This document shows, in pieces, positions 2,275 through 39,464 of a stretch of DNA of 39,503 bases; position 1 is the first letter of the stretch, and every line of letters begins with the position of its first letter. Both the position numbers and the translations under genes were made by a program. Below the pieces are notes generated by a model that was not told where the DNA came from, searched no databases, and saw nothing but the letters and a program-made list of their open reading frames with translations. This DNA comes from a virus. Its lineage: Duplodnaviria; Heunggongvirae; Uroviricota; Caudoviricetes. The stretch lies in the IMG/VR virus record IMGVR_UViG_2718218309_000001. One strand, written 5' to 3'.

Positions 2275-3546
2275 TTAGGCTACCAGAGCATTTGATCTTT
2301 GAGCTTGAACGTAATCACTCCACCATTGCATCAAACTCTGTCGCTCTATCAGATATTCTGCACGATTGTATGCTGCGATAATTTCATCTTTTTTCGAGTG
2401 GGCAAGCGCTGCCTCAAGAACTTCAGCTCTGAATTTACCAGACTCCTCTGCCGCTGTTCGTGCAATAGAACGCATACCGTGAGCTACAAGCTCGCCTCCG
2501 AACCCCATTCGGATGATAGCTGCGTTGGCTGTTTGTTCATGCATATGATTAAGAGGCGCTTTTATGCTGGGGAAAACCCATTCTCTATGCCCACTTATTG
2601 ATTTCATTAATTCAAGGATGCGCAAAGCTTCTTTACTCAAAGGAACTTTGTGAAGCTTTTTCATTTTCATGAAATCAGCAGGAATGTTCCAAATGCTGTT
2701 GGTTGTATCAATATCAGACCACCTTGCGCGAACGGCTTCACCCGGACGAACCCATGTCAACAATTGCCATTCAATTAGCATACGTGTTTCCAACCGGATT
2801 GACGCATTCGTCAAAGATTCCATAAACCTTGGCAATTCGCTTGGGGGAAGGGCAGGCATATTTTGCTTTTTTGGTTTACTGAATCTTTGACCAAGGTTGT
2901 CAGCCGGGTTGAACTCAATAAGTTCTTCAGTAGCTGCCCACCGGAAGATTTCATTCAGACGTGAAATGATACGGCGTAGAGTTTCCAATACGCCTCGTTG
3001 CTCAATAGGATCAAGGTGTTGTTTTAAGAGCTTAGGTCGGATCTCATTGATAGGGACATTACCCAGACCGGGAAAGACATTTCTCTCTAAGCTGCGCCAG
3101 ATGTCTGCTGCATGGTCTTGTGAGATACCTGATGTCTTTACCTTCTCATCTAACCATTTCCGCGCTACGGCTTGGAGAGTGTGCTCAGTAGCACTCTTTA
3201 ATGCCTTCGCCTTATCGTTGTTATGGATTTGGGGATCAACACCATTTGCCAGAAAGGAGAGATATTCATCACGTAAGGCTCTGGCTCTTGCAAGGGTAAG
3301 GTGAGGATATGTCCCAAGGCTCATTTTGGTTCTTTTCTTGCTCACTGGTACTGCATACCTGAAATACCAATTTTTCTTGCCTCCTTTCGCCAAAGGAGCG
3401 ATTCGTAGAATCAGACCATCACCGTCAAACAAGTTGATTTCTTTATCGGCTGGCTTGGTGCTTTTGATTTCAGTGTCAGTGAGCTTCTTAGCGATTTTTG
3501 CCATTTTGGGACCCTCGGTTTTTGGACCCTTCTTAGTGGGTCCCAT
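2275..3546 (-). CDS. int: P4-family tyrosine integrase (CP4-57 IntA-like); true start probably the internal Met (MAKIAKKLTDTEIK, near 3504)
   Basis: N-terminal TDTEIKSTKP...DGDGL...WYFRY motif block typical of P4-type integrases; C-terminal catalytic region with R...H..R..Y-type residues (HGMRS, AHS...YNRAEY); adjacent to att copy. Confidence 0.9.
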   Translation of the reverse strand: MGPTKKGPKTEGPKMAKIAKKLTDTEIKSTKPADKEINLFDGDGLILRIAPLAKGGKKNWYFRYAVPVSKKRTKMSLGTYPHLTLARARALRDEYLSFLANGVDPQIHNNDKAKALKSATEHTLQAVARKWLDEKVKTSGISQDHAADIWRSLERNVFPGLGNVPINEIRPKLLKQHLDPIEQRGVLETLRRIISRLNEIFRWAATEELIEFNPADNLGQRFSKPKKQNMPALPPSELPRFMESLTNASIRLETRMLIEWQLLTWVRPGEAVRARWSDIDTTNSIWNIPADFMKMKKLHKVPLSKEALRILELMKSISGHREWVFPSIKAPLNHMHEQTANAAIIRMGFGGELVAHGMRSIARTAAEESGKFRAEVLEAALAHSKKDEIIAAYNRAEYLIERQSLMQWWSDYVQAQRSNALVA

Positions 3547-3827: not shown

Positions 3828-5021
3828 TCACTTCTTGTCTTCGATAGAACCGTATTCAAGAAGGTTGTCCATACACTTCTCTAACCTATAGAAATCTGTC
3901 AAAGGATAGAGATTGACAATGTTGTCATCAAAACTTTGCATACCTGATAAACGTTCTTTCCTTCTTAAGAATCTTGAGGCAGACCTAACACCATCATCCT
4001 CACTTGGTTCACAGGAATAATCTAGAGTTTTTAGTACCTGCCATGAAACGGGGGGAGTAAGCTTGAACATTTTTACTAGCTTAGGACAGAAATCTTTTGT
4101 TATGGTTTGCTGATATGTAACTTTAGGTGGAAGAACAACGTTAATAGATTTATCACCATGGTTTGTTTTAATCATTCTTGTCGATCTGTATGCAATTCCG
4201 ACAATGTTTGATTTATTTCTACGACTAATCCATTGCATTAATAAATTTGGGATTATATATTCCTGAGTGAAAGATGTGCTGCCGTTAATCTTTGCAAAAC
4301 TACAAGCGTAAATTAGTGGCATTAAACAAATGTAAGACATCTTTGTGATGTATGACATTTTGTCATTATCAATCTTACCATAGAAACGTGAGTAGAGGAT
4401 TTCCGAAGTGAAATCTAATATTTTGGAATTTTCTTCACTGGATATAAAAGAAGATATATATAACTTATCAAAATCAGGTTTATCCATTTCAAGCCAACAT
4501 ACATATAGGGATGAGCCTAAATATAAACAGGGTAGACCTGCAACCGAGTATCTTTGGGCATTTACCAAGTGCCTTTTAGAGAATGGTATATGAAAGATTT
4601 CATTTCTATTTTTTACTGCTGTATCAGATTTTCTAACCCTGAATAAAGGTCTTGAAGAATTGCAAATATTCTCTAAGGGGATTGATATTTTCTGGATGTA
4701 GTTAGCTGTGAATCGATCAGAAAATGTTCTGTCGAAAGTATCATATGAGGACTTGATATCACCTGATAAAAAATATTCCAAAGAGCTTACAACGCCAAAG
4801 TATATTCTTGTTATTCTATCAAGTTTAGAACTCAATCTACGAGATAATTCATTGTCATTATCTTCTATGTAGTCATTTAAAGTATTAAAGTAAATTTCAC
4901 ATTTATTTTTAAAATCATTAATAATGTCGGTCTTAACAGTGAAAGGGAGTTTTAAATCTCCCGTCTTTATAAGGCTTTCAAATAAAAAATTAAAATCATC
5001 ATGTATATTTTCGGTTTCCAT
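3828..5021 (-). CDS. RES-domain-like protein (397 aa), candidate NAD+-targeting toxin/effector
   Basis: Motif block PLFRVR...QRYSVAGLPCLYLGSSLYVCWLE (aa about 125-179) matches the RES signature (Arg ... G.P.LYL.SS ... E) known from RES-Xre toxins; very AT-rich; second gene of an operon downstream of int. Confidence 0.55.
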   Translation of the reverse strand: METENIHDDFNFLFESLIKTGDLKLPFTVKTDIINDFKNKCEIYFNTLNDYIEDNDNELSRRLSSKLDRITRIYFGVVSSLEYFLSGDIKSSYDTFDRTFSDRFTANYIQKISIPLENICNSSRPLFRVRKSDTAVKNRNEIFHIPFSKRHLVNAQRYSVAGLPCLYLGSSLYVCWLEMDKPDFDKLYISSFISSEENSKILDFTSEILYSRFYGKIDNDKMSYITKMSYICLMPLIYACSFAKINGSTSFTQEYIIPNLLMQWISRRNKSNIVGIAYRSTRMIKTNHGDKSINVVLPPKVTYQQTITKDFCPKLVKMFKLTPPVSWQVLKTLDYSCEPSEDDGVRSASRFLRRKERLSGMQSFDDNIVNLYPLTDFYRLEKCMDNLLEYGSIEDKK

Positions 5022-5075: not shown

Positions 5076-6203
5076 TCATTCCAAATGATCTGCCGCCGCT
5101 TTGCCGCCAAGGATTTTCATATAAGGAGGCTTAGCATAAACCTCCTTGGTCTGCTGGAAAGTGGTTTTGGAGAATCTTCTTTCTTCTGATTGTAAATATT
5201 TTAGCAGACGTTGATATTTGTTTTCTAATATTTGACTATTCCCAGCCAGATCGTAAATATCGCAGGTTATGTTATAAAGCCAATAAACTACGGCTTTGAT
5301 TTCAGGCTCTGAGAAATAGGTTGTGTTAAATACATATTCATTATTATGATTGTAAATGTAGGAGTGTTTCCTTTGTATAGTGTTAACCTTAAGTAGCTTC
5401 ATAAGGTTGATAATTTTAAGGTCAATAGAAATTAAAGAAATTATCTCTGACTTCAAATCACCCTTTTTGATACCAATAATTTCTTTATCAAGTTCATTCC
5501 AGGCATTTATGATTTTTTGCGTGAATTTTGGGGAAGGGCTATAAATTGCACCAGTATTTTGTGAAGATTGAAATAAATTATTATAAAGCTTATGAGGAAA
5601 TACAATTTTCACTTCGTAAGTATTTACTTTTTCACTTGATTCTATATAAGCATGGCTAGCCACTTCAGCAGCCACATGCCTTGTTCGATCAGTCTGCGTG
5701 GGGATATATTCAAGAACCAAAGTAGGGAATGAACTAATCGTTTCGATAAATAGTTTTAAATGAGAGTAATAAGCGTCTGCATTGTTTTTAACTTTAGCTG
5801 ATTGTATCTGTGATTCAGTTTGAATGGTTCTATGAATATTATTTACTATTGAAGCCAGTGGCACTGATGAAGCTAATAATAGCAACGGAAGTTTACTAAT
5901 ATTAAGAAAATTTGCAAACCCGTCGGTTGTCAGTTGTAAACTATGATCTCTCCAAACCCAGCAACCGAATAAAATAAAATAGTAAAATGGTAATAAGATA
6001 GAAGCTATAAACAAAGGTTGTTTGAATAAATTATTGTCATTTAACTCAAACCACCCGTAAAAATAAAACAGTCCTATTGTTATAAATAATGAGGTTATTG
6101 CCACCGTTAAGAACATTACCTCAAAACCATAATATATTGTAAAAGTATTTGCAACTATGGATAGTAAGAGCAAAAAAGTTAAAGTGATAATTTTATTTTT
6201 CAT
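5076..6203 (-). CDS. Hypothetical membrane protein (375 aa): about 4 N-terminal TM helices plus about 280-aa soluble C-terminal domain
   Basis: Hydrophobic segments in the first 90 aa; start ATG (6203-6201) overlaps the int stop codon (TGA 6202-6200), i.e. ATGA translational coupling with int; AT-rich. Confidence 0.6.
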   Translation of the reverse strand: MKNKIITLTFLLLLSIVANTFTIYYGFEVMFLTVAITSLFITIGLFYFYGWFELNDNNLFKQPLFIASILLPFYYFILFGCWVWRDHSLQLTTDGFANFLNISKLPLLLLASSVPLASIVNNIHRTIQTESQIQSAKVKNNADAYYSHLKLFIETISSFPTLVLEYIPTQTDRTRHVAAEVASHAYIESSEKVNTYEVKIVFPHKLYNNLFQSSQNTGAIYSPSPKFTQKIINAWNELDKEIIGIKKGDLKSEIISLISIDLKIINLMKLLKVNTIQRKHSYIYNHNNEYVFNTTYFSEPEIKAVVYWLYNITCDIYDLAGNSQILENKYQRLLKYLQSEERRFSKTTFQQTKEVYAKPPYMKILGGKAAADHLE

Positions 6204-7219
6204 AAGTTAATCATATTCAACGGGTTTTTGGTAACTGCATCTTCTAAATGATCTGGGGAGAAATGTGCATAGATCATTGTCATCTTAATATCGGCATGCC
6301 CAAGAATTTCTTTAAGAACAAGTATATTACCGCCATTCATCATGAAATAGCTTGCGAAGGTATGCCGCAGCACGTGGGTACATTGGCCCTCTGGCAAGTC
6401 GATACCAGCTCGTTTCACTGCGCGCTCAAAAGCTTTTCTGCATGGCGTGAATAGTTTCCCTCTGTTTTTGGGGAGTTCATCATACAGCTCCTGAGATATC
6501 GGTATGGTACGGTTTTTCTTGCCTTTAGTTTTGGTATAGGTGATCCGGTATTTAGTTAACTGATGGCCTTGAAGGTTTTCTGCTTCACTCCATCGCGCGC
6601 CGGTAGCCAGGCATATTTTTGCAATCATCAATAGGCTGGAGCTATGAGAATCTGCGCAAGCATCAAGCAGGCGTTTAATTTCTTCCGTGGTCAGGAACGC
6701 CAGCTCACCTTCTGCGATTTTAAATGTTGGCAAACCGGCGAGTGGATTGGGTGCTGACCAATGGCCCAACTTTTTCAGTGTGCCAAACACGGATGATAGG
6801 TTGCGTTGTTCAAGGTTTACCGTGCGAGGCTTAACTGGCGACATAAGCACGCCATCTTCATTTCGCACCTCACCTTTTAGCCGTGCTTCGCGGTATTTCG
6901 TAAAGTCGCCAGCGGTTAACTCTGAGGCAACAGGATCACCCAGGCCGTTACAAATAATGTTGAGTTTTGCCATCAGGCGTTTGGGGTCAGCAAGTGTCTG
7001 CCCGTAGAGTGAATGCCATTGCTCAATCACTTCTGACAAACGCCGCCGATCTTCTTTCTCACCCAACCACGGTTTTTTGTTTACTTCGTCCATGGTGTGA
7101 TTTTCGAATGCTATGGCCTCACCTTTCGTCGCAAATTGTTTGCGCACACGCTTGCCGTCGCGCCCGTTAGGGTAGCACTCACATAACCATTTACCGTTCG
7201 GCTGTTTTCTGATGGTCAT
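6200..7219 (-). CDS. int: P2/186-type tyrosine integrase
   Basis: 339-aa protein with N-terminal MTIRKQPNGKWLCE... and C-terminal catalytic residues (R...HVLRHTFAS...YAHF), as in P2 Int; located next to the repressor gene as in P2/186. Confidence 0.9.
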   Translation of the reverse strand: MTIRKQPNGKWLCECYPNGRDGKRVRKQFATKGEAIAFENHTMDEVNKKPWLGEKEDRRRLSEVIEQWHSLYGQTLADPKRLMAKLNIICNGLGDPVASELTAGDFTKYREARLKGEVRNEDGVLMSPVKPRTVNLEQRNLSSVFGTLKKLGHWSAPNPLAGLPTFKIAEGELAFLTTEEIKRLLDACADSHSSSLLMIAKICLATGARWSEAENLQGHQLTKYRITYTKTKGKKNRTIPISQELYDELPKNRGKLFTPCRKAFERAVKRAGIDLPEGQCTHVLRHTFASYFMMNGGNILVLKEILGHADIKMTMIYAHFSPDHLEDAVTKNPLNMINL

Positions 7220-7222
7220 AAG

Positions 7223-7873
7223 TTAGAGGCTCTTGATTACTTTGGCTGCTCGTCCTACAACTTCCACATCATCTACAGAGCATTCAAATGAAGTGTCATC
7301 TTGGTGAACTACTATTTTGTTTCCGGGTATACGTGCAATTTTGACGATGTTTTTCATACCGTCGATGTCTATGAGCCAAATTCCGTTACTAAGCTGTTTT
7401 GCTGATGTGTCAACGATGTAATTGCCATCGCTAGCTTTGACGTACAAACAGTATTCGGCTTTTCCGGGTATCAAACTCTGATCAAGGAAAACATCTTCCA
7501 GCTCTTCGAGCGTTCCGTTCTCAATGGTTGCCTGCCGTACTGATGGGATAACAATCTTTGAAAGGGGGCGAACTGTAGGTGAACTCTCGTTTTTGAACTT
7601 ATTTTTTTCTTCTGTTTGAGGATACATTTCCCCTTGGCCCGTTGTCAGCCAAAGCAGAGAAATACCTGTTTCAAGGGCACATTGAATAACCCAGTCAGCG
7701 GGAAAGCTATCACGTAACATCCTGTTTGCCATGGTACTTTTTGATGCTTCGAGATGTTCAACTAACGCTATTTGAGTGTTGAAACCATAGGCGGTCATCA
7801 GCCTTTTGATGGTCTCCCTTCCTCCCGTATTTGCACCTGTATTGATCTTCAAGATGAACTCTCCATTTGACAA
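7223..7873 (-). CDS. cI: Phage 186 CI-like immunity repressor
   Basis: Resembles 186 CI (AYGF..., CALETG..LWLTTGQGE, C-terminal VDDVEVVGR); divergent from apl across an operator-containing intergenic region. Start codon uncertain (track start is a non-ATG codon). Confidence 0.8.
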   Translation of the reverse strand: MSNGEFILKINTGANTGGRETIKRLMTAYGFNTQIALVEHLEASKSTMANRMLRDSFPADWVIQCALETGISLLWLTTGQGEMYPQTEEKNKFKNESSPTVRPLSKIVIPSVRQATIENGTLEELEDVFLDQSLIPGKAEYCLYVKASDGNYIVDTSAKQLSNGIWLIDIDGMKNIVKIARIPGNKIVVHQDDTSFECSVDDVEVVGRAAKVIKSL

Positions 7874-15185: not shown

Positions 15186-15884
15186 ATGGTTATGTTAGTG
15201 GATGACTGTCCACGATGTGGATCACAAAAAATAGCGTTTGATGTTAATGGGCTGAATTGCACTAGGGTTTACAATGCATTGGGCGGGGGTAAAACATACG
15301 AGTACGAGGTCTATTGTGTTTGCCGAGAGTGTCATAAAACGACAATGTTTCTTTGCAGACCTTTAACGAAAAATAAAACTTTAGATGGCTATAATTGGGA
15401 AAGTGGAATATTCGGCTTAAAGGAAGTTGCAGAGGTTGTTAGGCCTATATCACCGGCAGACTTAGCAGTAGAGGAGCCACCAGAGTTCTTACCTGAGCAT
15501 ATCAATAGTACATATGAGGAAGGGGCGAAATGTTTGGCTATAGGTTGTTATAATGCAGCAGCAACCATGTTTAGGCTTTGCCTTGATTATGCCACAAAAG
15601 GACTTCTTCCTGATGGGGAGCAAGGGCCTGCGCAAAAAATAAGGAGAAGCCTAGGGTTAAGAATGGAGTGGTTATTTGATAATCATCTACTGCCTGAAGC
15701 TTTAAGGGAACTAGCTGAATGCGTTAAAGATGACGGAAATGATGGAGCGCATGAAGGTATTTTGGATAAAGCTGCTGCTGAGGATCTTGAAGATTTTACC
15801 TATCTTTTTTTAGAACGGCTTTACACTGAACCTCAACGCCTTATCGAAGCCAAGACAAGGCGTGAACAAAGAAGAAACAAATAA
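15186..15884 (+). CDS. Hypothetical Zn-ribbon protein (232 aa): N-terminal CPRCG...CRECH plus C-terminal helical domain; cargo between cos and Q
   Basis: Cx2C-N30-Cx2C at the N-terminus; GGAGGAG RBS; AT-rich; stop is only 8 bp from the Q stop. Confidence 0.65.
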   Translation: MVMLVDDCPRCGSQKIAFDVNGLNCTRVYNALGGGKTYEYEVYCVCRECHKTTMFLCRPLTKNKTLDGYNWESGIFGLKEVAEVVRPISPADLAVEEPPEFLPEHINSTYEEGAKCLAIGCYNAAATMFRLCLDYATKGLLPDGEQGPAQKIRRSLGLRMEWLFDNHLLPEALRELAECVKDDGNDGAHEGILDKAAAEDLEDFTYLFLERLYTEPQRLIEAKTRREQRRNK

Positions 15885-28638: not shown

Positions 28639-29021
28639 AATATTATTCACCTTCAATTAATGGATTTCCCGAACAAAAGACTGATGACAGTATTGAGATC
28701 AGTGAAGAGGTCTGGAGAATACTTCTTAGTGAAATTTACTCAGGCCGGGAGTTATTTAACGATGGCGGCGTACCCGCTACCCGTGTGCCGCAACCTACGC
28801 AAGAACAAGTAATTGCAGCCGCAGAAAATGAGCGCCAACGATTGCTGAATTATGCTGATACCGTAATGCTCGACTGGCGTACAGAATTGATGCTGGGTGA
28901 AATCAGCGACGCCAACAGGGCTAAATTGTCGGCGTGGCTGGCTTATAAAAATCAAGTTAAGTCGGTTGATGTGACAACTGACCCTGAGCATGTTAACTGG
29001 CCTGTTCCCCCGGAGGCGTAG
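28635..29021 (+). CDS. G: Tail fibre assembly protein (P2 gpG-like)
   Basis: 128-aa protein after H; conserved Tfa C-terminal motif (...NWPVPPEA). Confidence 0.8.
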   Translation: MKYYSPSINGFPEQKTDDSIEISEEVWRILLSEIYSGRELFNDGGVPATRVPQPTQEQVIAAAENERQRLLNYADTVMLDWRTELMLGEISDANRAKLSAWLAYKNQVKSVDVTTDPEHVNWPVPPEA

Positions 29022-29436
29022 GCCATTCAATATCTGGCGCACTGGAGGTATCAACCAGTTCCAGTGCGTCCAGATAATCCAGCCATAAATTATATTGTTC
29101 CAGCTCGTCACCTTTCAGACGACCAATAGCAGCTTTGCCAGGCCACTGATGGGTATTGATGTAGGTATTGACTTCTGAAACCAAAGATATTTTTTTCATT
29201 TCAGCCGTCAACACCTCATCCTCTTTTGAAGGGGGTGGGGAATTAATCCATACTGGCCGTCCTGAACTGTCAGCGCCAATTTCTTTCCCTTCTGGATGCA
29301 GCCCAAGAAATTGCTCATATGTTTCTCGGTTAATTTCAATAACATCATCTGGAAGCGTTCCCGCATCCTCATATTCTGGAAACAATTCTTGTAGATAAAA
29401 ACTTTTACTTCCGGGTGAAAAGAATACTGAGTTCAT
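28993..29436 (-). CDS. Alternative tail fibre assembly protein (tfa') in inverted orientation
   Basis: 147-aa protein with the same C-terminal motif family (...EWPTPPGEQAS); convergent with G, 3' ends overlap. Confidence 0.75.
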   Translation of the reverse strand: MNSVFFSPGSKSFYLQELFPEYEDAGTLPDDVIEINRETYEQFLGLHPEGKEIGADSSGRPVWINSPPPSKEDEVLTAEMKKISLVSEVNTYINTHQWPGKAAIGRLKGDELEQYNLWLDYLDALELVDTSSAPDIEWPTPPGEQAS

Positions 29437-29438
29437 TA

Positions 29439-29933
29439 TTACCGTCCAATGATTAACGCTGAGACGCTGGTATCTGAAGGAAAGGCTGCATTCAGTGGTT
29501 TGTCGACTTTGAATACAATCGTATTATTCCCCCGGACAGCGGCAAAAGAACAAACCGCCGTCGCGTATGAACCTGTAATATTACTGGATACACCACCATA
29601 GGTTGTTGTTGATACCAGAGGGATAACGCCCAGCACCTTATTAGGAAATACAAAGGGCAATGTGGCTGTGGCAATATAAGACTTATTAGAACCTGTGATG
29701 GCATAAGCATTATCAGTCATTCCATTCATCGCCACTGGGCCGCTTATACTTACAGTAACCATCTGAATGATTAGCCCGTCAGGTTGACGAATCACAAAAT
29801 TTCCATTGCCACCAGTAACCGTCCAGAAAGACATATCAGGGATTTGGTTTTCCCCGTTGCCCACATTCCGTTTTGCCGCTTCTCCCAAACCAACGTTTAA
29901 GAAAATGCAGAGGTAACAGCTAACTGGCATCAT
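29439..29933 (-). CDS. Alternative tail fibre C-terminal segment (H'), expressed as a fusion to the H N-terminus after inversion
   Basis: Frame stays open upstream of the listed Met through the right crossover site (…LGEAAKRNV…); Gly/Thr/Ser-rich beta-type composition typical of fibre tips. Confidence 0.7.
   Translation of the reverse strand: MMPVSCYLCIFLNVGLGEAAKRNVGNGENQIPDMSFWTVTGGNGNFVIRQPDGLIIQMVTVSISGPVAMNGMTDNAYAITGSNKSYIATATLPFVFPNKVLGVIPLVSTTTYGGVSSNITGSYATAVCSFAAVRGNNTIVFKVDKPLNAAFPSDTSVSALIIGR
29871..29893. repeat. Right crossover site of the invertible segment (inverted copy of 28184-28206)
   Basis: See left site; about 1.7 kb apart, invertase gene immediately outside. Confidence 0.55.
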
Positions 29934-29960
29934 CTCCGGTTTTTATTCAGGGGGATGATC

Positions 29961-30527
29961 ATGCTTATTGGCTATGTACGCGTGTCAACAAATGACCAGA
30001 ACACCGATTTGCAACGTAATGCACTGAACTGCGCGGGATGTGAGCAGATTTTTGAGGACAAAATCAGTGGCACTAAGTCCGACAGACCGGGGCTGAAAAA
30101 ACTACTCAGGACACTATCGGCAGGAGACACGCTGGTTGTCTGGAAGCTGGACAGGTTGGGGCGCAGTATGCGGCATCTTGTTACGCTGATAGAAGAGTTG
30201 CGCCAGCGTGGTGTGAATTTCAGAAGCCTGACTGACAGTATTGATACCAGTACCCCAATGGGCCGTTTCTTTTTTCATGTCATGGGTGCCCTGGCTGAAA
30301 TGGAACGCGAACTGATAGTTGAACGTACCAGGGCAGGGCTGGCTGCAGCTCGTGCCAAAGGCAGAGTAGGTGGACGCCGTCCTAAGTTGACCACCGAACA
30401 GTGGGCACAGATTGGGCGTTTACTCGAGGCCGGAGAATCAAGACAGCGTATTGCACTGATTTTTGATGTAGGCGTTTCTACCATTTATAGAAAATTTCCG
30501 GCAAATAAGATCAATGAATCCCCCTGA
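29961..30527 (+). CDS. Serine-recombinase DNA invertase (Hin/Gin/Pin/Cin family)
   Basis: MLIGYVRVSTNDQNTDLQ (catalytic Ser motif), ...DTLVVWKLDRLGRS..., C-terminal HTH (GVSTIYRKF); about 188 aa; adjacent to the inverted repeats. Confidence 0.9.
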   Translation: MLIGYVRVSTNDQNTDLQRNALNCAGCEQIFEDKISGTKSDRPGLKKLLRTLSAGDTLVVWKLDRLGRSMRHLVTLIEELRQRGVNFRSLTDSIDTSTPMGRFFFHVMGALAEMERELIVERTRAGLAAARAKGRVGGRRPKLTTEQWAQIGRLLEAGESRQRIALIFDVGVSTIYRKFPANKINESP

Positions 30528-30669: not shown

Positions 30670-31842
30670 ATGGCTCAGGATTACCACCACGGGGTGCGCG
30701 TTGTTGAAGTCAACGAAGGCACCCGATCTATTACCACGGTGAGCACCGCCATCGTGGGTATGGTCTGCACGGGCGATGATGCCGATGCAAAAATGTTTCC
30801 TCTTAATAAACCCGTGCTGATCACTGATGTGCTGACTGCCAGCGGTAAAGCGGGTGAGTCAGGTACTCTGGCCCGTTCGCTGGATGCCATCGCTGACCAG
30901 GCAAAACCCGTGACCATTGTTGTGCGTGTGCCGCAGGGTGAAACGGAAGACGAAACCACGACCAATATCATCGGCGCAGTGACTGCTGAAGGTAAAAAAA
31001 CAGGTATGAAAGCCCTGTTATCTGCCCAGTCACAGCTCGGCGTTAAACCGCGCATTCTCGGCGTGCCAGGCCACGACACCAAGGCGGTAGCTACTGAGTT
31101 GCTGAGCGTGGCGCAAAGCCTGCGTGGATTTGCTTACCTGTCAGCGTATGGCTGCAAGACAGTGCAGGAGGCGATCACTTACCGCGAAAACTTCAGCCAG
31201 CGCGAAGGGATGCTGATCTGGCCTGACTTTACTGGCTGGGACACGGTGCTGAATGCCGAAGCAACGGCATATGCCACCGCCCGTGCGCTTGGTCTGCGCG
31301 CCAAAATTGACGAGCAGACCGGATGGCACAAAAGCCTGTCCAACGTGGGCGTGAACGGTGTCACCGGAATTTCTGCAGATGTGTTCTGGGATCTGCAGGA
31401 CCCGGCAACCGATGCAGGTCTGCTGAACCAGAACGACGTCACCACGCTTGTGCGTAAAGACGGTTTCCGCTTCTGGGGTTCCCGCTGCCTGAGTGATGAC
31501 CCGCTCTTTGCCTTCGAAAACTACACCCGCACGGCGCAGGTGCTGATGGACACGATGGCAGAAGCACACATGTGGGCGGTGGATAAACCGCTTAACCCGT
31601 CGCTGGCCCGCGACATTATCGAAGGTATCCGCGCCAAAATGCGCAGCCTGGTCAGTCAGGGCTATCTCATTGGTGGTGATTGCTGGCTGGATGAGTCGGT
31701 GAACGACAAAGACACGCTGAAAGCCGGAAAACTCACCATCGACTACGACTACACGCCAGTGCCGCCACTTGAAAACCTGATGCTGCGTCAGCGCATCACC
31801 GATCAGTACCTGGTGAATTTCGCCAGCCAGGTCAGCGCGTAA
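30670..31842 (+). CDS. FI: Contractile tail sheath protein (P2 gpFI)
   Basis: 390-aa protein (P2 FI about 396 aa) in the conserved position before the tube gene. Confidence 0.95.
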
Positions 31843-31851
31843 GGGGACAAC

Positions 31852-32367
31852 ATGGCATTACCACGCAAATTAAAACACCTGAACCTGTTTAACGACGGGA
31901 ACAACTGGCAGGGGATCGTTGAGTCGCTGACGCTGCCGAAATTTACCCGCAAATATGAGAAGTATCGCGGCGGCGGAATGCCGGGTGCGGTGGATGTGGA
32001 TCTGGGGCTTGATGACAGTGCGCTGGACACAGAATTTTCCATTGGTGGTACTGAATTGCTGCTGTTTAAACAGATGGGTAAAGCCACGGTGGATGGCATC
32101 CAGCTGCGCTTTACCGGCTCTATTCAGCGTGACGATACCGGGGAAGTGCAGGCCGTGGAGCTTGTCGTGCGTGGACGTCACAAAGAAGTGGATTCCGGCG
32201 AGTGGAAGACGGGCGAAAGCAACACCACCAAAGTGACCAGTACCAACAGCTACGCGAAGCTGACCATCAATGGTGAGGTGCTCTATGAAGTGGACCTTAT
32301 CAACATGGTGGAAATTGTGGACGGTGTGGACCTGATGGAAGCGCACCGCAACGCCCTCGGCCTCTGA
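31852..32367 (+). CDS. FII: Tail tube protein (P2 gpFII)
   Basis: 171-aa protein following FI. Confidence 0.95.
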   Translation: MALPRKLKHLNLFNDGNNWQGIVESLTLPKFTRKYEKYRGGGMPGAVDVDLGLDDSALDTEFSIGGTELLLFKQMGKATVDGIQLRFTGSIQRDDTGEVQAVELVVRGRHKEVDSGEWKTGESNTTKVTSTNSYAKLTINGEVLYEVDLINMVEIVDGVDLMEAHRNALGL

Positions 32368-32421: not shown

Positions 32422-32724
32422 ATGAGCGATAAGCAGACTGAAAAGACCATTCAACTGGATACCCCCATCAAGCGCGGTAAAACAGAAATCACCGAAATTG
32501 TGCTGCGTAAACCGCAGTCCGGTGCGCTGCGCGGTACACGCCTGCAGGCCATTATGGATATGGATGTAAACGCGATGATGACCGTGATCCCCCGCATCTC
32601 CAGTCCGGCACTGACTGCACAGGAAATTGCAGAGATGGACCCGGCAGATCTCACTGCCATGTCGGTTGAGGTTGTCACTTTTTTGTTGAAGAAGTCGGTG
32701 CTTGCCGGTTTACCGACAGCCTGA
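32422..32724 (+). CDS. E: Tail assembly chaperone E (P2 gpE)
   Basis: 100-aa ORF before tape measure; contains slippery heptamer TTTTTTG at 32679-32685 near its 3' end. Confidence 0.85.
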   Translation: MSDKQTEKTIQLDTPIKRGKTEITEIVLRKPQSGALRGTRLQAIMDMDVNAMMTVIPRISSPALTAQEIAEMDPADLTAMSVEVVTFLLKKSVLAGLPTA

Positions 32725-32858
32725 CGGTTGACGATCTGGTGGCAGATATCGCCACCATTTTTCACTGGCCGCCATCCGTTACTGACGTTATGCCGCTGAC
32801 CGAAGTGCTGGAATGGCGGTATAAAGCGATTCAGAGAAGCGGGGCCAACGATGAGTGA
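32422..32858 (+). CDS. E+E': E+E' fusion chaperone produced by programmed -1 ribosomal frameshift at TTTTTTG (32679-32685)
   Basis: The -1 frame is open from the slippery site to TGA 32856-32858 (codons checked by hand, no stop); it overlaps the T start at 32851, matching the P2 E/E' arrangement. Confidence 0.75.
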
Positions 32859-35800
32859 TAACAACCTGCGTCTGCAGGTCATTCTTAATGCGGTTGACAA
32901 GCTCACCCGCCCATTTCGATCTGCGCAGGCCAGTTCAAGAGAACTGGCTGCTGCTGTCAAAAAATCCCGCGATGCAATAAAGCAGCTTGATCAGGCCGGG
33001 AGCAGTCTGGACAGCTTCCGAAAGCTGCAGGCAGAAAATCAGAAATTAGGCGACAGGCTGAACTATGCCCGCCAGCGTGCAAATTTGCTCAGTCAGGAAC
33101 TGGGAGCGATGGGGCCGCCTTCGCAACGTCAGGTTGTTGCTCTGGGCCGTCAACGGCTGGCTGTTCAGCGCCTGGAAGAACGCCAGAAAAAGCTGCAGCA
33201 GCAGACGGCGCTTGTGCGTGCTGAACTGTACCGGGCGGGAATTTCTGCGAAAGACGATGCGGGAGCAACTGCCCGTTTAGCCCGTGAAACATCACGTTAT
33301 AACCAGGAACTTTCGAAACAGGAGGCGCGGCTGAAGCGACTGGGGGAAGCTCAGCGCAGGATGAATGCAGCGCGTGCCAGTTATGCCCGTTCGCTGGAGG
33401 TGCGTGATCGTATTGCAGGTGCCGGAGCCACCACCACGGCTGCAGGGCTGGCAATGGGTGCGCCAGTGATGGCGGCAGTAAAAAGCTATACCAGCATGGA
33501 AGATGCCATGAAAGGTGTGGCAAAGCAGGTCAATGGTCTGCGTGACGATAATGGCAACCGCACTGCACGTTTTTATGAAATGCAGGATGCCATCAAGGCT
33601 GCCAGCGAACAGTTGCCGATGGAAAACGGTGCGGTGGACTTCGCTGCACTGGTTGAAGGTGGTGCGCGCATGAACGTCGCAAACCCTGACGACAGCTGGG
33701 AAGATCAGAAACGTGACCTGCTGGCCTTCGCCAGTACGGCAGCAAAGGCGGCAACAGCCTTTGAGCTGCCAGCGGATGAACTGTCAGAAAGTCTGGGGAA
33801 AATCGCCCAGCTCTACAAAATCCCCACCCGCAATATTGAACAGCTCGGTGATGCGCTGAACTATCTGGATGATAACGCCATGTCGAAAGGGGCAGACATC
33901 ATTGATGTGATGCAACGTCTGGGCGGTGTGGCTGACCGTCTGGATTATCGTAAAGCGGCGGCGCTGGGTTCCACCTTCCTGACACTGGGCGCTGCGCCAG
34001 AGGTTGCAGCCAGTGCAGCAAACGCGATGGTGCGTGAATTGTCCATTGCCACCATGCAAAGCAAGAGTTTCTTTGAAGGGATGAATCTGCTGAAACTCAA
34101 TCCTGAAGTGATTGAAAAGCAGATGACGAAGGATGCGATGGGAACCATCCAGCGCGTGCTGGAGAAGGTAAACGCGCTGCCGCAGGACAAGCGCCTGTCT
34201 GCCATGACTATGTTGTTTGGTAAAGAGTTTGGCGATGACGCGGCGAAACTGGCAAACAACCTGCCGGAACTGCAGCGTCAGTTAAAACTGACAGCGGGCA
34301 ATGATGCGCTTGGCTCCATGCAGAAAGAATCCGACATTAACAAGGATTCACTTTCTGCGCAGTGGTTGCTGGTCAAAACCGGAGCGCAGAACACCTTCAG
34401 CAGCCTGGGCGAAACGCTGCGCCAGCCGCTGATGGATATTCTGTACACGGTGAAAAGCGTCACGGGGGCGTTGCGTCGCTGGGTGGAAGCTAACCCGGAA
34501 CTGACAGGCACACTGATGAAAGCATCGGCTGTTGTGGCTGCGGTTACCGTCGGCCTCGGCACCTTAGCGGTGGCGCTGGCTGCAGTGCTGGGGCCGCTGG
34601 CAGTGATCCGTCTGGGATTCTCTGTGTTGGGTATCAAAACGTTATCTTCCGTTACGGCAGCAGTAACTCGAACCAGCAGCGCGTTGTCCTGGCTGGCTGG
34701 CGCACCACTGGCACTGCTGCGACGCGGGCTTGCTTCATCGGGCAACGCCGCAGGTTTACTTACTGCGCCGTTGTCGTCTTTGCGCCGCACGGCATCACTG
34801 ACGGGAAATGTCCTGAAAACTGTAGCAGGTGCGCCGGTTGCACTTTTGCGGTCTGGATTATCCGGTTTACGTGCGGTTGCTGTGATGTTTATGAATCCAC
34901 TGGCAGCACTACGCGGCGGGCTGGCTGCCGCAGGCACGGTGCTGCGAGTACTGGCATCTGGTCCACTGGCGATGTTGCGCGTTGCCCTGTATGCCGTATC
35001 TGGTCTGTTAGGTGCTCTGCTCAGTCCGATAGGTCTTGTGGTTACTGCACTGGCGGGTGTGGCACTGGTTGTCTGGAAATACTGGCAACCCATCACCGCA
35101 TTTCTCGGTGGCGTGGTGGAAGGATTCAAAGCGGCGGCAGGTCCCATCAGTGCAGCGTTCGAACCGCTTAAGCCTGTGTTCCAGTGGATTGGTGACAAAG
35201 TGCAGGCGCTGTGGGGCTGGTTTACTGATCTGCTGACGCCCGTTAAGTCGACTTCTGCCGAACTGCAGAGCGCAGCGGCAATGGGGCGACGATTCGGGGA
35301 GGCACTGGCGGAAGGGCTGAATATGGTTATGCATCCGCTGGACTCCCTGAAATCTGGCGTTTCCTGGTTGCTGGATAAACTCGGCATTGTCAGTAAAGAG
35401 GCTGCAAAGGCGAAACTGCCGGAAAGCGTGACGCGTCAGCAACCTGCGACGGTGAATGCAGACGGTAAAGTGATGATGCCATCGGGTGGTTTTCCGTCAT
35501 GGGGATATGGCTTTGCGGGGATGTATGACAGCGGCGGCTATATCCCGCGCGGGCAGTTTGGCATCGTCGGTGAAAACGGGCCGGAAATTGTTAACGGCCC
35601 GGCAAATGTGACCAGCCGGAGAAATACAGCTGCACTGGCTGCCGTTGTTGCCGGAATGATGGGCGTTGCTGCCGCGCCTGCAGAGCTTCCACCGTTGCAC
35701 CCTTTGGCACTTCCCGCGAAAGGCGGCGAAGCGATGGTGAGTCGTGCAGCCACTGTGCCGCCCGTTCAACGGATTGAGGCACCGATGCAGATCATCATTC

Positions 35801-35928
35801 AGACGCAGCCAGGACAAAGTGCGCAGGATATTGCGCGGGAGGTGGCCCGCCAGCTTGATGAACGTGAACGCAGGCTGAAGGCAAAAGCCAGGAGTAACTA
35901 CAGCGATCAGGGGGGATACGACGCATGA
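32851..35928 (+). CDS. T: Tail tape measure protein (P2 gpT)
   Basis: 1025-aa Ala/Leu-rich protein with coiled-coil N-terminus and hydrophobic central repeats; position after E/E'. Confidence 0.9.
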   Translation: MSDNNLRLQVILNAVDKLTRPFRSAQASSRELAAAVKKSRDAIKQLDQAGSSLDSFRKLQAENQKLGDRLNYARQRANLLSQELGAMGPPSQRQVVALGRQRLAVQRLEERQKKLQQQTALVRAELYRAGISAKDDAGATARLARETSRYNQELSKQEARLKRLGEAQRRMNAARASYARSLEVRDRIAGAGATTTAAGLAMGAPVMAAVKSYTSMEDAMKGVAKQVNGLRDDNGNRTARFYEMQDAIKAASEQLPMENGAVDFAALVEGGARMNVANPDDSWEDQKRDLLAFASTAAKAATAFELPADELSESLGKIAQLYKIPTRNIEQLGDALNYLDDNAMSKGADIIDVMQRLGGVADRLDYRKAAALGSTFLTLGAAPEVAASAANAMVRELSIATMQSKSFFEGMNLLKLNPEVIEKQMTKDAMGTIQRVLEKVNALPQDKRLSAMTMLFGKEFGDDAAKLANNLPELQRQLKLTAGNDALGSMQKESDINKDSLSAQWLLVKTGAQNTFSSLGETLRQPLMDILYTVKSVTGALRRWVEANPELTGTLMKASAVVAAVTVGLGTLAVALAAVLGPLAVIRLGFSVLGIKTLSSVTAAVTRTSSALSWLAGAPLALLRRGLASSGNAAGLLTAPLSSLRRTASLTGNVLKTVAGAPVALLRSGLSGLRAVAVMFMNPLAALRGGLAAAGTVLRVLASGPLAMLRVALYAVSGLLGALLSPIGLVVTALAGVALVVWKYWQPITAFLGGVVEGFKAAAGPISAAFEPLKPVFQWIGDKVQALWGWFTDLLTPVKSTSAELQSAAAMGRRFGEALAEGLNMVMHPLDSLKSGVSWLLDKLGIVSKEAAKAKLPESVTRQQPATVNADGKVMMPSGGFPSWGYGFAGMYDSGGYIPRGQFGIVGENGPEIVNGPANVTSRRNTAALAAVVAGMMGVAAAPAELPPLHPLALPAKGGEAMVSRAATVPPVQRIEAPMQIIIQTQPGQSAQDIAREVARQLDERERRLKAKARSNYSDQGGYDA

Positions 35929-36410
35929 TGATGGTGCTGGGATTGTACGTGTTTATGCTGCGCACCGTGCCGTATCAGGAGCTGCAGTATCAACGCAGCT
36001 GGCGACATGCGGCAAACAGCCGGGTAAACCGACGTCCGTCCACGCAGTTTCTGGGACCGGACAACGACATGCTGACGCTTTCCGGTGTTCTTATGCCGGA
36101 GATAACAGGTGGCAGGCTGTCGTTGCTGGCACTGGAGCAGATGGCAGAACAGGGGAAAGCATGGCCCCTGATTGAAGGCAGCGGCACGATTTATGGCATG
36201 TATGTGATTGAGGGACTGAATCAGACTAAAACGGAGTTTTTCCGCGACGGTATGCCGCGCCGGATTGAGTTCACCCTGTCGCTCAAACGGGTGGATGAAT
36301 CCCTGTCCGATATGTTCGGTGATCTCAGTGCGCAACTGAATAATCTGCAGGAAACGGCAACGTCTGCCTTAAGCGATATCAGTAAAACGGTGGGAGGGCT
36401 GCTGTCGTGA
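35925..36410 (+). CDS. U: Tail protein U (P2 gpU)
   Basis: 161-aa protein, start overlaps T stop. Confidence 0.9.
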   Translation: MMMVLGLYVFMLRTVPYQELQYQRSWRHAANSRVNRRPSTQFLGPDNDMLTLSGVLMPEITGGRLSLLALEQMAEQGKAWPLIEGSGTIYGMYVIEGLNQTKTEFFRDGMPRRIEFTLSLKRVDESLSDMFGDLSAQLNNLQETATSALSDISKTVGGLLS

Positions 36411-37507
36411 ATTTCAGCTCTGAACTGCTTAACAAAAGCAACAAAACTCCGGCATTCAGCATCAGTATTGAGGGCAGGGATATCACCACTGTGCTGGATA
36501 ACCGCCTGATGAGTCTGACTCTGACGGACAATCGGGGCTTTGAAGCAGACCAGCTTGATCTGGAGCTGGACGATGCCGACGGGAAAATCGTGCTGCCGCG
36601 CCGTGGTGCGGTCATTACGCTGGCGCTGGGCTGGAAGGGGCAGCCGCTTTTCCCGAAAGGGGCATTCACGGTGGACGAGATTGAACACACTGGCGCACCG
36701 GGCCGCCTGACTATCCGGGCGCGAAGTGCTGATTTTCGGGAAACGCTGAATACCCGCCGTGAAAAATCGTGGCACAAGACCACCATTGGGGAAGTGGTGA
36801 AGGAGATAGCCGCGCGGCACAAGCTGAAGATGGTACTGGGTAAAGACCTGTCGGATAAGCTCGTGGAGCATATAGACCAGACTAATGAGAGTGACGGTAG
36901 TTTTCTGATGCGGCTGGCGCGCCAGTACGGTGCTATTGCGTCGGTGAAAAATGGCAATCTGTTATTCATCCGGCAGGGACAGGGCAAAAGTGCCAGCGGT
37001 AAACCACTGCCGGTGATCACTATCACACGTAAGGACGGCGACAGTCACCGCTTTACCCTGGCAGATCGCGGAGCCTATACGGGCATAATTGCCAGCTGGT
37101 TGCATACCCGCGAACCCGCGAAGAAAGAAAGCACCACGGTGAAGCGTAAGCGCAGGACTAAGAAGCAGAAGAAAGAGCTGGAAGCGAAGCAGGGCGATTA
37201 CCTGGTGGGTACGGATGAAAACGTGCTGGTACTTAATCGCACTTATGCCAACCGGAGCAACGCTGAACGGGCAGCGAAAATGCAGTGGGAACGCCTGCAA
37301 CGCGGCGTTGCGTCATTCTCGCTACAACTGGCGGAAGGGCGGGCAGATCTCTACACGGAAATGCCAGTGAAAGTCAGTGGCTTTAAACAGCCGATAGATG
37401 ATGCGGAATGGACCATTACGACTCTGACACATACCGTCAGCCCGGATAATGGTTTTACGACCAGTCTTGAGCTTGAAGTGAAGGTTGATGATCTCGAAAT
37501 GGAATGA
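36407..37507 (+). CDS. D: Tail protein D (P2 gpD)
   Basis: 366-aa protein (GTG start overlapping U stop), last structural gene before ogr as in P2. Confidence 0.9.
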   Translation: MNFSSELLNKSNKTPAFSISIEGRDITTVLDNRLMSLTLTDNRGFEADQLDLELDDADGKIVLPRRGAVITLALGWKGQPLFPKGAFTVDEIEHTGAPGRLTIRARSADFRETLNTRREKSWHKTTIGEVVKEIAARHKLKMVLGKDLSDKLVEHIDQTNESDGSFLMRLARQYGAIASVKNGNLLFIRQGQGKSASGKPLPVITITRKDGDSHRFTLADRGAYTGIIASWLHTREPAKKESTTVKRKRRTKKQKKELEAKQGDYLVGTDENVLVLNRTYANRSNAERAAKMQWERLQRGVASFSLQLAEGRADLYTEMPVKVSGFKQPIDDAEWTITTLTHTVSPDNGFTTSLELEVKVDDLEME

Positions 37508-37597
37508 TTCTTCACAATGGAGAACTTTTAAGTTTGAAAAATGGAATAATGCGATATCATTATTGTGAATTTAGCAAAAATGGGGAGAACTCGAAAA

Positions 37598-37816
37598 ATG
37601 ATGATTTGCCCACTGTGTGGAAGTGCCGCCCATACTCGCAGCAGTTTTCAGGTATCTTCATTGACCAAAGAGCGTTACAACCAGTGCCAGAACATTAACT
37701 GCAGCCATACTTTTGTTACCCATGAAACTTTTGTTCGTTCGATTGCAACGCCAAAAGAGTCAAATCCGGTTCAGCCGCATCCTCATAAATTTAAACAGGT
37801 GGGTTTGCCGATTTAA
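37598..37816 (+). CDS. ogr: Late gene transcriptional activator Ogr (zinc-finger)
   Basis: MMICPLCGSAAHTRSS...KERYNQCQNINCSHTF parallels P2 Ogr (CPLC...KERYHQCQNVNCSATF); 72 aa from ATG 37598. Confidence 0.9.
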   Translation: MMICPLCGSAAHTRSSFQVSSLTKERYNQCQNINCSHTFVTHETFVRSIATPKESNPVQPHPHKFKQVGLPI

Positions 37817-37880
37817 ATGGCGACATAACTACATGATTTAAAACTATACTTTTCTATAAGTTGAGGTTAAATTAACAATG

Positions 37881-38057
37881 CCTGACGTTAGCGGGGATTT
37901 ATCCCCACTCCGTAGATATGTAGTTTGTCGCTTTGCGACTGCGGACCGATTACCTGATTGCCATGTAATCGGACGCCGACTTGTTAAGCTTTCTGGGCTA
38001 ACTGGTTGTTATTTTTTATTTAGTTAGGGCCATGCGCTTGCGCTAAGAGACGTCAGG
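37881..38057 (+). ncRNA. Candidate structured non-coding RNA (possible RT template, retron msr/msd-like) bounded by inverted repeats CCTGACGT / ACGTCAGG
   Basis: 8-bp inverted repeat at 37881-37888 and 38050-38057 encloses about 160 nt with several stable hairpins (GGGGAT-TT-ATCCCC at 37893-37906; GTCGC-TTT-GCGAC at 37927-37939; CCGATTAC-N11-GTAATCGG at 37946-37972); no ORF; directly upstream of the RT operon. Strand and ends not established. Confidence 0.3.
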
Positions 38058-38077
38058 TATCTATGGAGGAACAAGTT

Positions 38078-38251
38078 ATGGATACAAACGAACTTGGCTT
38101 AGTTAAGGCGCGTGTTGAACTGATCACCGCTATGCTCAAATGCGCAACCGCGTTTGTTGGCTTAGTTGGTGCGGTTTACGCCGTTCTTAACATGGCCTTC
38201 AACTACAACAATTTAACTCATGACAATAGAAGTTCAAAGGTGGGAAGATAA
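38078..38251 (+). CDS. Small single-TM protein (57 aa from ATG 38078; 62 aa from ATG 38063)
   Basis: Strong RBS GGAGGA (38065-38070) 7 nt before ATG 38078; hydrophobic helix CATAFVGLVGAVYAVLNMAF; 3' end overlaps the RT start by about 30 nt. Confidence 0.45.
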   Translation: MDTNELGLVKARVELITAMLKCATAFVGLVGAVYAVLNMAFNYNNLTHDNRSSKVGR

Positions 38252-38993
38252 ATTTGAGATTAAGCCCGGGGTTTGGGTTTATGTCCCAAGCGTTGAGGCA
38301 CGTAAAGTCGGAGGGAAGATACTTCAGGCTGTCAGAAACAAGTGGATTCCGCCACTCTATTTTTACCATCTAAGAACTGGTGGGCATCTTAAAGCTGCCA
38401 GATTACACTTAAAAAGTGATTTTTTTGCCGTTGTTGATATTAAACAATTTTTTCAGTCAACGAGCCGTAGTCGTATCACCCGTGATCTAAAGAGCTACTT
38501 CACCTATTCTCAAGCGCGGGAAATCTCAACATTTTCAACTGTAAGAAACTTGTCCCATAGTCCACATAAGCATGTCCTCCCTTTTGGTTTTGTTCAATCT
38601 CCAATACTTGCAACCCTCTGCTTAGATAAAAGTTATTTTGGTAGCTTACTACGCCGATTGAACAAACATCATGATCTCAAGCTAAGTGTGTTTATGGATG
38701 ATGTGATCATCTCGTCAAACGATTTGGCCCAATTACAAGCGGCTTACGACGAAGCACTAGTGGCAATGCGTAAATCTGGTTATCAAGCCAACATGAGTAA
38801 AACTCAGGCACCATCGTCAAAGATTAGCGTGTTTAATTTAACTTTGAGTAAGGGAGTTATGAAAGTCACATCTCAGAAAATGAGTGACTTCCTGATTGAT
38901 TTCTATTCAAGCAATTATGAGCCGCACAGAATAGGGGTCAAAAACTACGTCGAAGCTGTTAATCCAGGGCAAGCGAAACTCTTTAAGTTGTAA
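38220..38993 (+). CDS. Compact reverse transcriptase (257 aa; fingers/palm only), defence-associated RT candidate
   Basis: RT motifs in order: motif 2 FFAVVDIKQFF (catalytic Asp), motif 4 LPFGFVQSPILATL, motif 5 VFMDDVII (FMDD at 38691-38702), motif 6 YQANMSKT; no obvious thumb, maturase or retron VTG region; AT-rich; between ogr and attR. Confidence 0.8.
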   Translation: MTIEVQRWEDKFEIKPGVWVYVPSVEARKVGGKILQAVRNKWIPPLYFYHLRTGGHLKAARLHLKSDFFAVVDIKQFFQSTSRSRITRDLKSYFTYSQAREISTFSTVRNLSHSPHKHVLPFGFVQSPILATLCLDKSYFGSLLRRLNKHHDLKLSVFMDDVIISSNDLAQLQAAYDEALVAMRKSGYQANMSKTQAPSSKISVFNLTLSKGVMKVTSQKMSDFLIDFYSSNYEPHRIGVKNYVEAVNPGQAKLFKL

Positions 38994-39062
38994 TTGCGAT
39001 CGCATGTAGTAGCAACTGGGCTTGACTGAATGTCTGCCGCCATTTTGCCGCCACTACTAAAG

Positions 39063-39101: not shown

Positions 39102-39146
39102 TGGTGGAGCTGGCGGGAGTTGAACCCGCGTCCGAAATTCCTACAT
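39102..39146. repeat. 45-bp att core within the ssrA 3' end (direct repeat partner of 3670-3714)
   Basis: Identical 45-mer; this copy is part of the intact tmRNA gene. Confidence 0.9.
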
Positions 39147-39464
39147 CCTCGGTACTACATGCTTAGTCAGTCTTTACATTCGCTTGCCAGCTGCGGACGG
39201 ACACGCCACTAACAAACTAGCCTGATTAAGTTTTAACGCTTCAACCCCAGGCAGGGCTTCCACGCGATCTCTTTTGGGTTTGACCTCTCTTGATCCCCGT
39301 CCTAAGAGCGGAGGCTAGGGAGAGAGGGCTCTAAGCAGGTTATTAAGCTGCTAAAGCGTAGTTTTCGTCGTTTGCGACTATTTTTTGCGGCTTTTTACGA
39401 GGCCAACCGCCCCTCGGCATGCACCTTGGGTTTCGCAAATCCCGTCGAATCCAGAATCAGCCCC
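39102..39464 (-). ncRNA. ssrA: tmRNA (transfer-messenger RNA, SsrA), 363 nt
   Basis: Reverse complement reads GGGGCTGATTCTGGATTCGACGGG...GCAAACGACGAAAACTACGCTTTAGCAGCTTAA (tag peptide ANDENYALAA)...GGTTCAACTCCCGCCAGCTCCACCA, matching the E. coli tmRNA sequence. Confidence 0.97.

Follow-up and report, generated by a model that had tools for sequence, protein, structure and literature searches.

The tail operon of a P2-like (Peduoviridae) prophage very probably carries a programmed −1 ribosomal frameshift, the predicted product of which is a gpE+E′ fusion. The operon lies within a 39,503-nt stretch of DNA (IMG/VR virus record IMGVR_UViG_2718218309_000001), which was analysed at its full length and is hereafter called the window. 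Gene E (32422–32724, plus strand) starts with ATG, ends with TGA at 32722–32724 and encodes the zero-frame tail assembly chaperone of 100 aa. Near its 3′ end lies the slippery heptamer T TTT TTG (32679–32685, plus strand), which is read in X XXY YYZ phase with the zero-frame codons ACT TTT TTG and, as read from the sequence, precedes the E stop by 14 codons. An earlier note, made from the letters of this DNA, had pointed to this heptamer near the end of E and had held that the −1 frame stays open from there to a stop overlapping the start of the tape measure gene; both statements are confirmed. At the 3′ end of E the −1 frame contains a TGA at 32667–32669 and then no stop from 32670 until the TGA at 32856–32858, an open stretch of 62 codons of which 57 lie past the slip point. 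The E′ extension read in the −1 frame after the slip (32685–32858, plus strand) accordingly comprises 57 codons and the TGA, and this TGA shares 8 nt with the ATG at 32851, within ATGAGTGA, that opens the tape measure gene T (32851–35928, plus strand; a 1025-aa ORF matching Pfam PF10145).

Homology of E/E′ and its genomic setting

The E product matches Pfam PF10109 (Phage_TAC_7; E=1e-18, bit score 67.5 with the cut-off at 25) over residues 9–88, a family described as "tail assembly chaperone proteins E, 41 or 14". Conceptual translation through the −1 shift gives a fusion of 145 aa that retains the PF10109 match and gains a match to PF06528 (Phage_P2_GpE) over fusion residues 107–143 (E=2.6e-18, bit score 65.6 with the cut-off at 23), arguing that the −1 ORF is a real coding sequence of the E′ family. 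A sequence search against solved structures returned nothing at E≤1 for this locus, and an Rfam search of the window returned no family at the slippery site, a tmRNA being the sole match. The Pfam matches further place E/E′ between FII and T in a tail operon with the order FI–FII–E/E′–T–U–D, which is the order of P2. All of these genes lie on the plus strand: FI, the tail sheath gene (30670–31842; PF04984/PF17482), FII, the tail tube gene (31852–32367; PF04985), and, downstream of T, the genes U (35925–36410; PF06995) and D (36407–37507; PF05954). At the T–U boundary another heptamer with X XXY YYZ phasing, G GGG GGA (35910–35916), precedes the T stop by 5 codons, and the −1 frame from it enters U (ATG at 35925) and is open for 164 codons, making a T–U fusion formally possible. 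Since the T stop and the U start simply overlap in ATGA, this heptamer is probably there by chance.

The programmed −1 frameshift that yields E and E+E′ in P2 was reportedly described by Christie et al. in 2002 in J Bacteriol 184:6522. Alignment with P2 E′, a check that the earlier note had proposed, bears out the relationship: in BLASTP the window fusion is 49% identical to P2 E+E′ over 139 residues, gap-free through the junction (E=4e-51), with the two heptamers in one column. The TTTTTTG of P2 is identical to the window heptamer in sequence, phase and alignment column; in both phages the E′ part comprises 57 codons, and in both the E′ stop and the T start overlap by 8 nt. As summarized in passages of later papers that cite Christie 2002, frameshifting at TTTTTTG gives P2 a 91-aa E and a 142-aa E+E′ (PMC3091744), the fusion is produced at a level several percent that of E, and tail assembly requires E′ (PMC3091744, PMC3931495, PMC5009743); in a passage of the last of these, the shift efficiency of P2 is put 2–3 fold higher than the ~1:30 of lambda. 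The window phage nevertheless differs from P2 in that it belongs to a different genus and that its E extends 12 codons past the heptamer (100 aa), as compared with 6 in P2 (91 aa). The two also differ in annotation. In the P2 record (NC_001895), the 91-aa E is accompanied by an E+E′ CDS entered as a join, and a "site of -1 translational frameshift" is marked next to TTTTTTG; the L-413C record likewise gives a joined E+E′ CDS with the −1 frameshift noted, whereas the E and E′ ORFs are unjoined in the public annotation of the window lineage.

The frameshift of lambda G/GT, to which the earlier note also likened the site, was reportedly worked out by Levin, Hendrix and Casjens in 1993 and by Xu, Hendrix and Duda in 2004, 2013 and 2014. 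Like E/E′, G/GT is located between the tail tube (major tail) gene and the tape measure gene, and, owing to a −1 shift shortly before its first ORF ends, its short and long chaperones are made in a fixed ratio (PMC5009743), the same arrangement as in E/E′. However, the heptamers differ (G GGA AAG in lambda, T TTT TTG in the window), the tail is contractile in the window phage type and that of a siphovirus in lambda, and no lambda-type gpG/gpGT family is found among the Pfam matches. The literature, too, reports no sequence similarity between the chaperone proteins of P2 and lambda. The heptamer of lambda, G GGA AAG, is carried by Mannheimia phage 587AP1, a relative of the window phage. The claim that the site reproduces the conserved chaperone frameshift is therefore supported for P2 E/E′, by homology, heptamer and synteny, but for lambda G/GT only in arrangement and mechanism and not by sequence family.

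At the nucleotide level, a 1.6-kb stretch around E–E′ shares 99.9% identity with Escherichia phage 500465-1 (Wadgaonvirus, Peduoviridae) and ~93% with many Klebsiella prophages, and the wider structural and tail region is 97.5–98.7% identical to phage 500465-1; the E–E′ region is also close to that of SopEPhi (Felsduovirus). Other parts of the window depart from phage 500465-1. The region 37505–39029 has no counterpart there; it follows D and contains an ORF at 37565–37816 that was recognized by eye as Ogr-like zinc-finger from its Cys pattern, and a 257-aa reverse transcriptase at 38220–38993 (E=2e-21 for Pfam RVT_1; in PADLOC it matches retron RT type VI best, with E=6.6e-18). Beyond it lies the host tmRNA gene (39102–39464, minus strand; tag ANDENYALAA). 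Rfam at its gathering threshold gave no retron ncRNA in the window, and the reverse transcriptase region looks like retron-type defence cargo in a variable region beside the ssrA attachment site. Just upstream of the sheath gene, a Hin/Gin-type DNA invertase (29955–30527; Pfam Resolvase and HTH_7) stands beside oppositely oriented ORFs (28993–29933, minus strand), at a place where phage 500465-1 has tail-fibre assembly and virion structural genes; the region 28635–30527 matches that phage in short stretches only, which suggests an invertible host-range segment. Two tyrosine integrases are encoded on the minus strand, at 2275–3546 and 6200–7219, the latter adjoining a CI-type repressor (7223–7873), and the two large ORFs between them (3828–5021 and 5076–6203) have no Pfam or PADLOC match; the segment 2275–7219 could represent either the tandem integration of a second island or a pair of cargo genes of unknown kind. 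A 232-aa ORF at 15186–15884, in a further region that differs from phage 500465-1, has a weak PADLOC match to PD-T7-4 (E=1e-6).

Conservation of the slippery site and its flanking elements

A tblastn search with the fusion returned 424 phage records, and nearly all of the matches listed fall in two pieces, i.e., in two frames. A genome-contig profile search with a 6-sequence alignment returned Enterobacterales only. In total, 97 relatives were examined, comprising 17 phage loci and 80 prophage loci from 79 bacterial genomes, with one Citrobacter assembly supplying two of the latter. An in-phase slippery heptamer is present at the homologous place in 96 of the 97 (17/17 phages and 79/80 prophages, the latter from different species), and in each of these 96 it is followed by a −1 ORF of 52–71 codons that runs up to or into the T start. 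With the window included, the heptamer is TTTTTTG in 84 cases, TTTTTTA in 7 and TTTTTTC in 2, whereas TTTTTTT, GGGAAAG, CCCTTTC and AAATTTT occur once each; G GGA AAG, C CCT TTC and A AAT TTT all fit tandem tRNA slippage without a long homopolymer. The sole relative without an in-phase heptamer is a Candidatus Symbiopectobacterium contig (NZ_PEHF01000066.1, ~900–1000; L064), in which E and E′ have become a single frame (...MIAIARFFDAEITAGDLPRSLTVDELMADIAVIFHW...) through a short deletion directly before the T-run, a state compatible with prophage decay in the genome of a symbiont.

The −1 ORF is conserved from Enterobacterales to Burkholderia, Ralstonia, Pseudomonas, Vibrio and Mannheimia phages, and the conservation of heptamer and open −1 frame goes beyond what protein coding needs. 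In the 46 representatives (<93% identical) used for codon counts, codon 0 is TTT in all and TTC in none. In 94/94 T-run sequences, codon −1 has T at its third position even though at least eight amino acids are encoded by this codon (T, N, G, S, L, I, Y and F), arguing that selection acts on the nucleotides and not on the protein. Over the 18 codons past the heptamer the −1 frame is free of stops in 49/49 representatives and the +1 frame contains stops in 45/49; over the 60 codons upstream of the heptamer, the −1 frame averages 2 stops. In either frame, the 12 codons over which E and E′ overlap encode a variable linker, which has insertions in several relatives; pairwise identity there is 0.585 in one frame and 0.59 in the other, such that the overlap yields no frame-specific selection signal.

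Upstream of the heptamer, the Shine-Dalgarno (SD)-like element GAGG(T/G) (32668–32672, plus strand), separated from it by 8 nt, is a candidate frameshift stimulator. In the window its duplex with the anti-SD sequence reaches −6.3 kcal/mol, a value equalled by 1.7% of tail-operon 8-mers. Across 48 representatives, the mean anti-SD profile has a background level of −0.55 ± 1.6 kcal/mol and dips sharply once, at offset −12, to −6.25 kcal/mol, and an SD-like motif occurs 6–17 nt upstream of the heptamer in 42 of 46 representatives, as compared with 7.7% of control windows in E. In line with this, the Glu codon at position −4 is used as GAG:GAA in the ratio 37:3, against 42:118 at the other Glu codons of E (Fisher p=7e-15, a value that ignores the shared ancestry of the sequences), and the Val following that Glu is encoded by GTG in 29/38 cases against 50% elsewhere (p=0.003). 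These codon biases point to maintenance of GAGG(T/G) by selection on synonymous sites. P2 has AGGTG 6 nt upstream of its heptamer, and the element is absent in Burkholderia KS14 and Stenotrophomonas Smp131.

In passages of Sharma et al. (PMC4066793), a spacing of 6–17 nt and a list of motifs are treated as experimentally stimulatory, and the window element falls inside this spacing and on this list. The supplement of the same paper gives, for UUUUUUG in E. coli reporters, 0.118%, 0.247% and 0.765% shifting in three contexts, which we take to be one free of stimulators, one with the IS911 stem-loop and one with the IS3 pseudoknot. UUUUUUG is thus weak in reporters while P2-type shifting is reported to be higher, and so the native context should help; given how low shifting is on UUUUUUG alone, it must contribute much. 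A resemblance to E. coli dnaX and IS911 is evident, for which an upstream SD-like stimulator is documented (Larsen et al. 1994; Prere et al. 2011; both as used in passages of PMC4066793): there, as in the window, an anti-SD element stands a few nt upstream of an X XXY YYZ heptamer. However, that heptamer is A AAA AAG and not U UUU UUG, the window has no strong downstream structure like the dnaX hairpin or the IS911 three-way junction, and, unlike for dnaX and IS911, we infer the stimulator role in the window purely from conservation. On these grounds the SD-like element is a plausible frameshift stimulator. The literature searched, to which the original P2 paper did not belong, describes no SD-like stimulator for P2-type phages. 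That an internal SD-like element functions in P2-like phages, lifts a poor heptamer to several percent and has so far gone undescribed is a tentative proposal, to which we would give somewhat less than an even chance.

Downstream of the heptamer, a possible imperfect hairpin (32694–32725, plus strand) begins after 8 nt and is weakly supported. The local 40-nt hairpin folds at −12.3 kcal/mol (z=−1.7; 10 of 200 shuffles were equally good) and the 90-nt downstream fold at −31 kcal/mol (z=−2.05). In this modest hairpin the window differs from P2, for whose equivalent region none is predicted (z=+0.37); passages in the work of earlier authors likewise give no downstream hairpin for P2 or Burkholderia phages. 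The consensus fold of 15 relatives is negligible (−3.5 kcal/mol, with a covariation term of −0.2). In pair counts over 63 sequences, covariation of a 6-bp stem was not above that of shuffles, and a 12-bp stem exceeded shuffles, but slides of ±3 covaried similarly and the structure had been derived from the window itself. A downstream stimulatory hairpin is therefore possible in the window, and in the window clade it might perhaps assist the SD-like element.

Alternative explanations for E′

The window contains 20 copies of TTTTTTG where 13.8 ± 3.2 would be expected, and 72 heptamers in X XXY YYZ phase fall within its ORFs of at least 100 aa. The presence of TTTTTTG by itself is thus within chance expectation, and because the heptamer is frequent its significance must come from context. 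This abundance is what an accidental origin of both heptamer and open −1 frame, with E′ left untranslated, could draw on; but the family match of the −1 ORF, its conservation across phages of so many hosts and the conservation of the heptamer at synonymous positions all speak against it. It is the combination of position, open −1 frame, −1 ORF homology and conservation in relatives that lies beyond chance, and on the compared sequences a coincidence appears refuted for practical purposes, with a negligible probability. A more substantial alternative grants that E′ is translated but takes it to be an independent 39-aa protein initiated at GTG 32739, for which a frameshift would be unnecessary. 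The ORF in question (32739–32858, plus strand), named "GpE family phage tail protein", corresponds to the C-terminal part of E′ and is annotated separately by RefSeq/PGAP in NC_049342, CP019275 and ~1000 contigs. The PF06528 model also starts exactly at the GTG position, which probably reflects the use of annotations like these in constructing the family. GTG or ATG is found at the E′ start column in 39 of 49 representatives, so some internal initiation may take place; however, the remaining 10 have a non-start codon there (GTA, GTC, GTT, ATT, GCC or TGG), and eight representatives have no start codon at all from the heptamer to the conserved ADIA motif. Moreover, the best anti-SD duplex before GTG 32739 is −2.5 kcal/mol as compared with −4 to −10 kcal/mol for the starts of E, T, FII and U, making it the weakest SD signal among the operon starts, and 44/49 representatives have no SD-like motif before the E′ start column. 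The initiation signals of E′ itself hence amount to a weak SD and an unconserved start codon, in an ORF that ends over the T start. Separate initiation would also leave unexplained why the −1 frame is open in 49/49 representatives back to the heptamer, upstream of the GTG, and why the heptamer is conserved at the nucleotide level. For P2, passages citing Christie 2002 report that E′ has no ribosome-binding site (PMC3931495) and that it is produced by extending E (PMC3091744). We consider it very unlikely that E′ is a separate gene.

The fusion could also arise mainly in transcription, with RNA polymerase adding or dropping a U on the T6 run and a subset of the mRNA encoding E+E′ in-frame. The slippery site is indeed a homopolymer of six T, and about ten public assemblies (L100–L104, Logan) carry T7, which fuses the frames into a 145-aa protein with ...VVTFFVEEVG.... 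These assemblies indicate a tendency of the run to gain or lose bases, if only during sequencing or replication, and they are either homopolymer sequencing errors or rare fusion-only mutants; the T6 form stands on ~1000 contigs. Assays that detect a fusion protein, such as those reported for P2, may be unable to tell the ribosomal route from the transcriptional one. E. coli RNA polymerase, however, slips appreciably only on runs of ~8–9 or longer, unless a nascent-RNA hairpin abuts the run, and here the nearest upstream hairpin-like repeat, GGCAG...CTGCC (32643–32658, found by eye), ends 20 nt before it. The heptamers G GGA AAG, C CCT TTC and A AAT TTT of relatives keep the zero-frame X XXY YYZ pattern with runs of three, which are unfit for polymerase slippage, and the conserved anti-SD-complementary element at stimulatory spacing favours a ribosomal mechanism. 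A mainly transcriptional origin of the fusion is thus improbable to a high degree, and programmed −1 ribosomal frameshifting is the explanation that we prefer.

Predicted products and their annotation

From the anatomy, homology and conservation of the locus we infer the existence of the fusion protein, its ratio to gpE, the part played by the SD-like element and the chaperone function, as follows. Under programmed −1 frameshifting, the majority of ribosomes would finish E (32422–32724) to give the 100-aa chaperone gpE, whereas a minority would slip one base back on T TTT TTG and read the −1 frame to the TGA at 32856–32858. The slip product, gpE+E′, would contain 145 aa, i.e., 88 N-terminal residues in common with gpE and an E′ tail of 57 residues. 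If both tRNAs slip on the heptamer, the predicted junction is ...VVTFLVEEVG..., and a slip one codon earlier on U UUU would instead give ...VVTFFVEEVG...; the predicted junction peptides, VVTFLVEEVGACR or VVTFFVEEVGACR, would thereby tell tandem from single-tRNA slippage. The GAGG(T/G) element 8 nt upstream probably pairs with the 16S rRNA of the elongating ribosome and raises the shift rate, to which the weak hairpin 8 nt downstream may add. The ratio of gpE to gpE+E′ would be fixed by the efficiency of the shift, and by analogy with lambda G/GT the pair would chaperone T and recruit tail-tube subunits, with gpE and the E part of the fusion binding the tape measure and the E′ part expected to engage the tail tube. 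Judging from P2 experiments and from lambda G/GT (PMC5009743), neither gpE nor gpE+E′ is expected in the finished virion.

The frameshift mechanism and its conservation among P2-like phages are already known and are textbook matter (Christie 2002; Xu 2004; PMC3091744; PMC3931495); what the current annotation of this lineage is missing is the joined E+E′ CDS. The exact 100-aa E protein is found on at least 1000 public contigs, where it is named 'phage tail assembly protein'. E and the 39-aa ORF stand under separate names, and the fused product is called only where the extra T is present. The SopEPhi record labels the orthologue "similar to gpE+E' of P2". The RefSeq record of phage 500465-1 (NC_049342.1) has the FII tail tube labelled 'head closure' and E′ split off as 'tail protein'; it also counts ~9 kb of host genes (smpB, ratA, bamE, recN, nadK, grpE and ffh) as phage, which suggests a prophage prediction with host flank.

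For a widespread prophage lineage of E. coli, Klebsiella and Salmonella, a likely essential 145-aa E+E′ protein is therefore missing from protein databases, save for the ten or so extra-T assemblies. A correctly joined CDS would benefit proteomics searches, the engineering of phages and tailocins, and the training of frameshift predictors. The SD-like element, if functional, could explain how a weak heptamer supports a useful rate of frameshifting in these phages.
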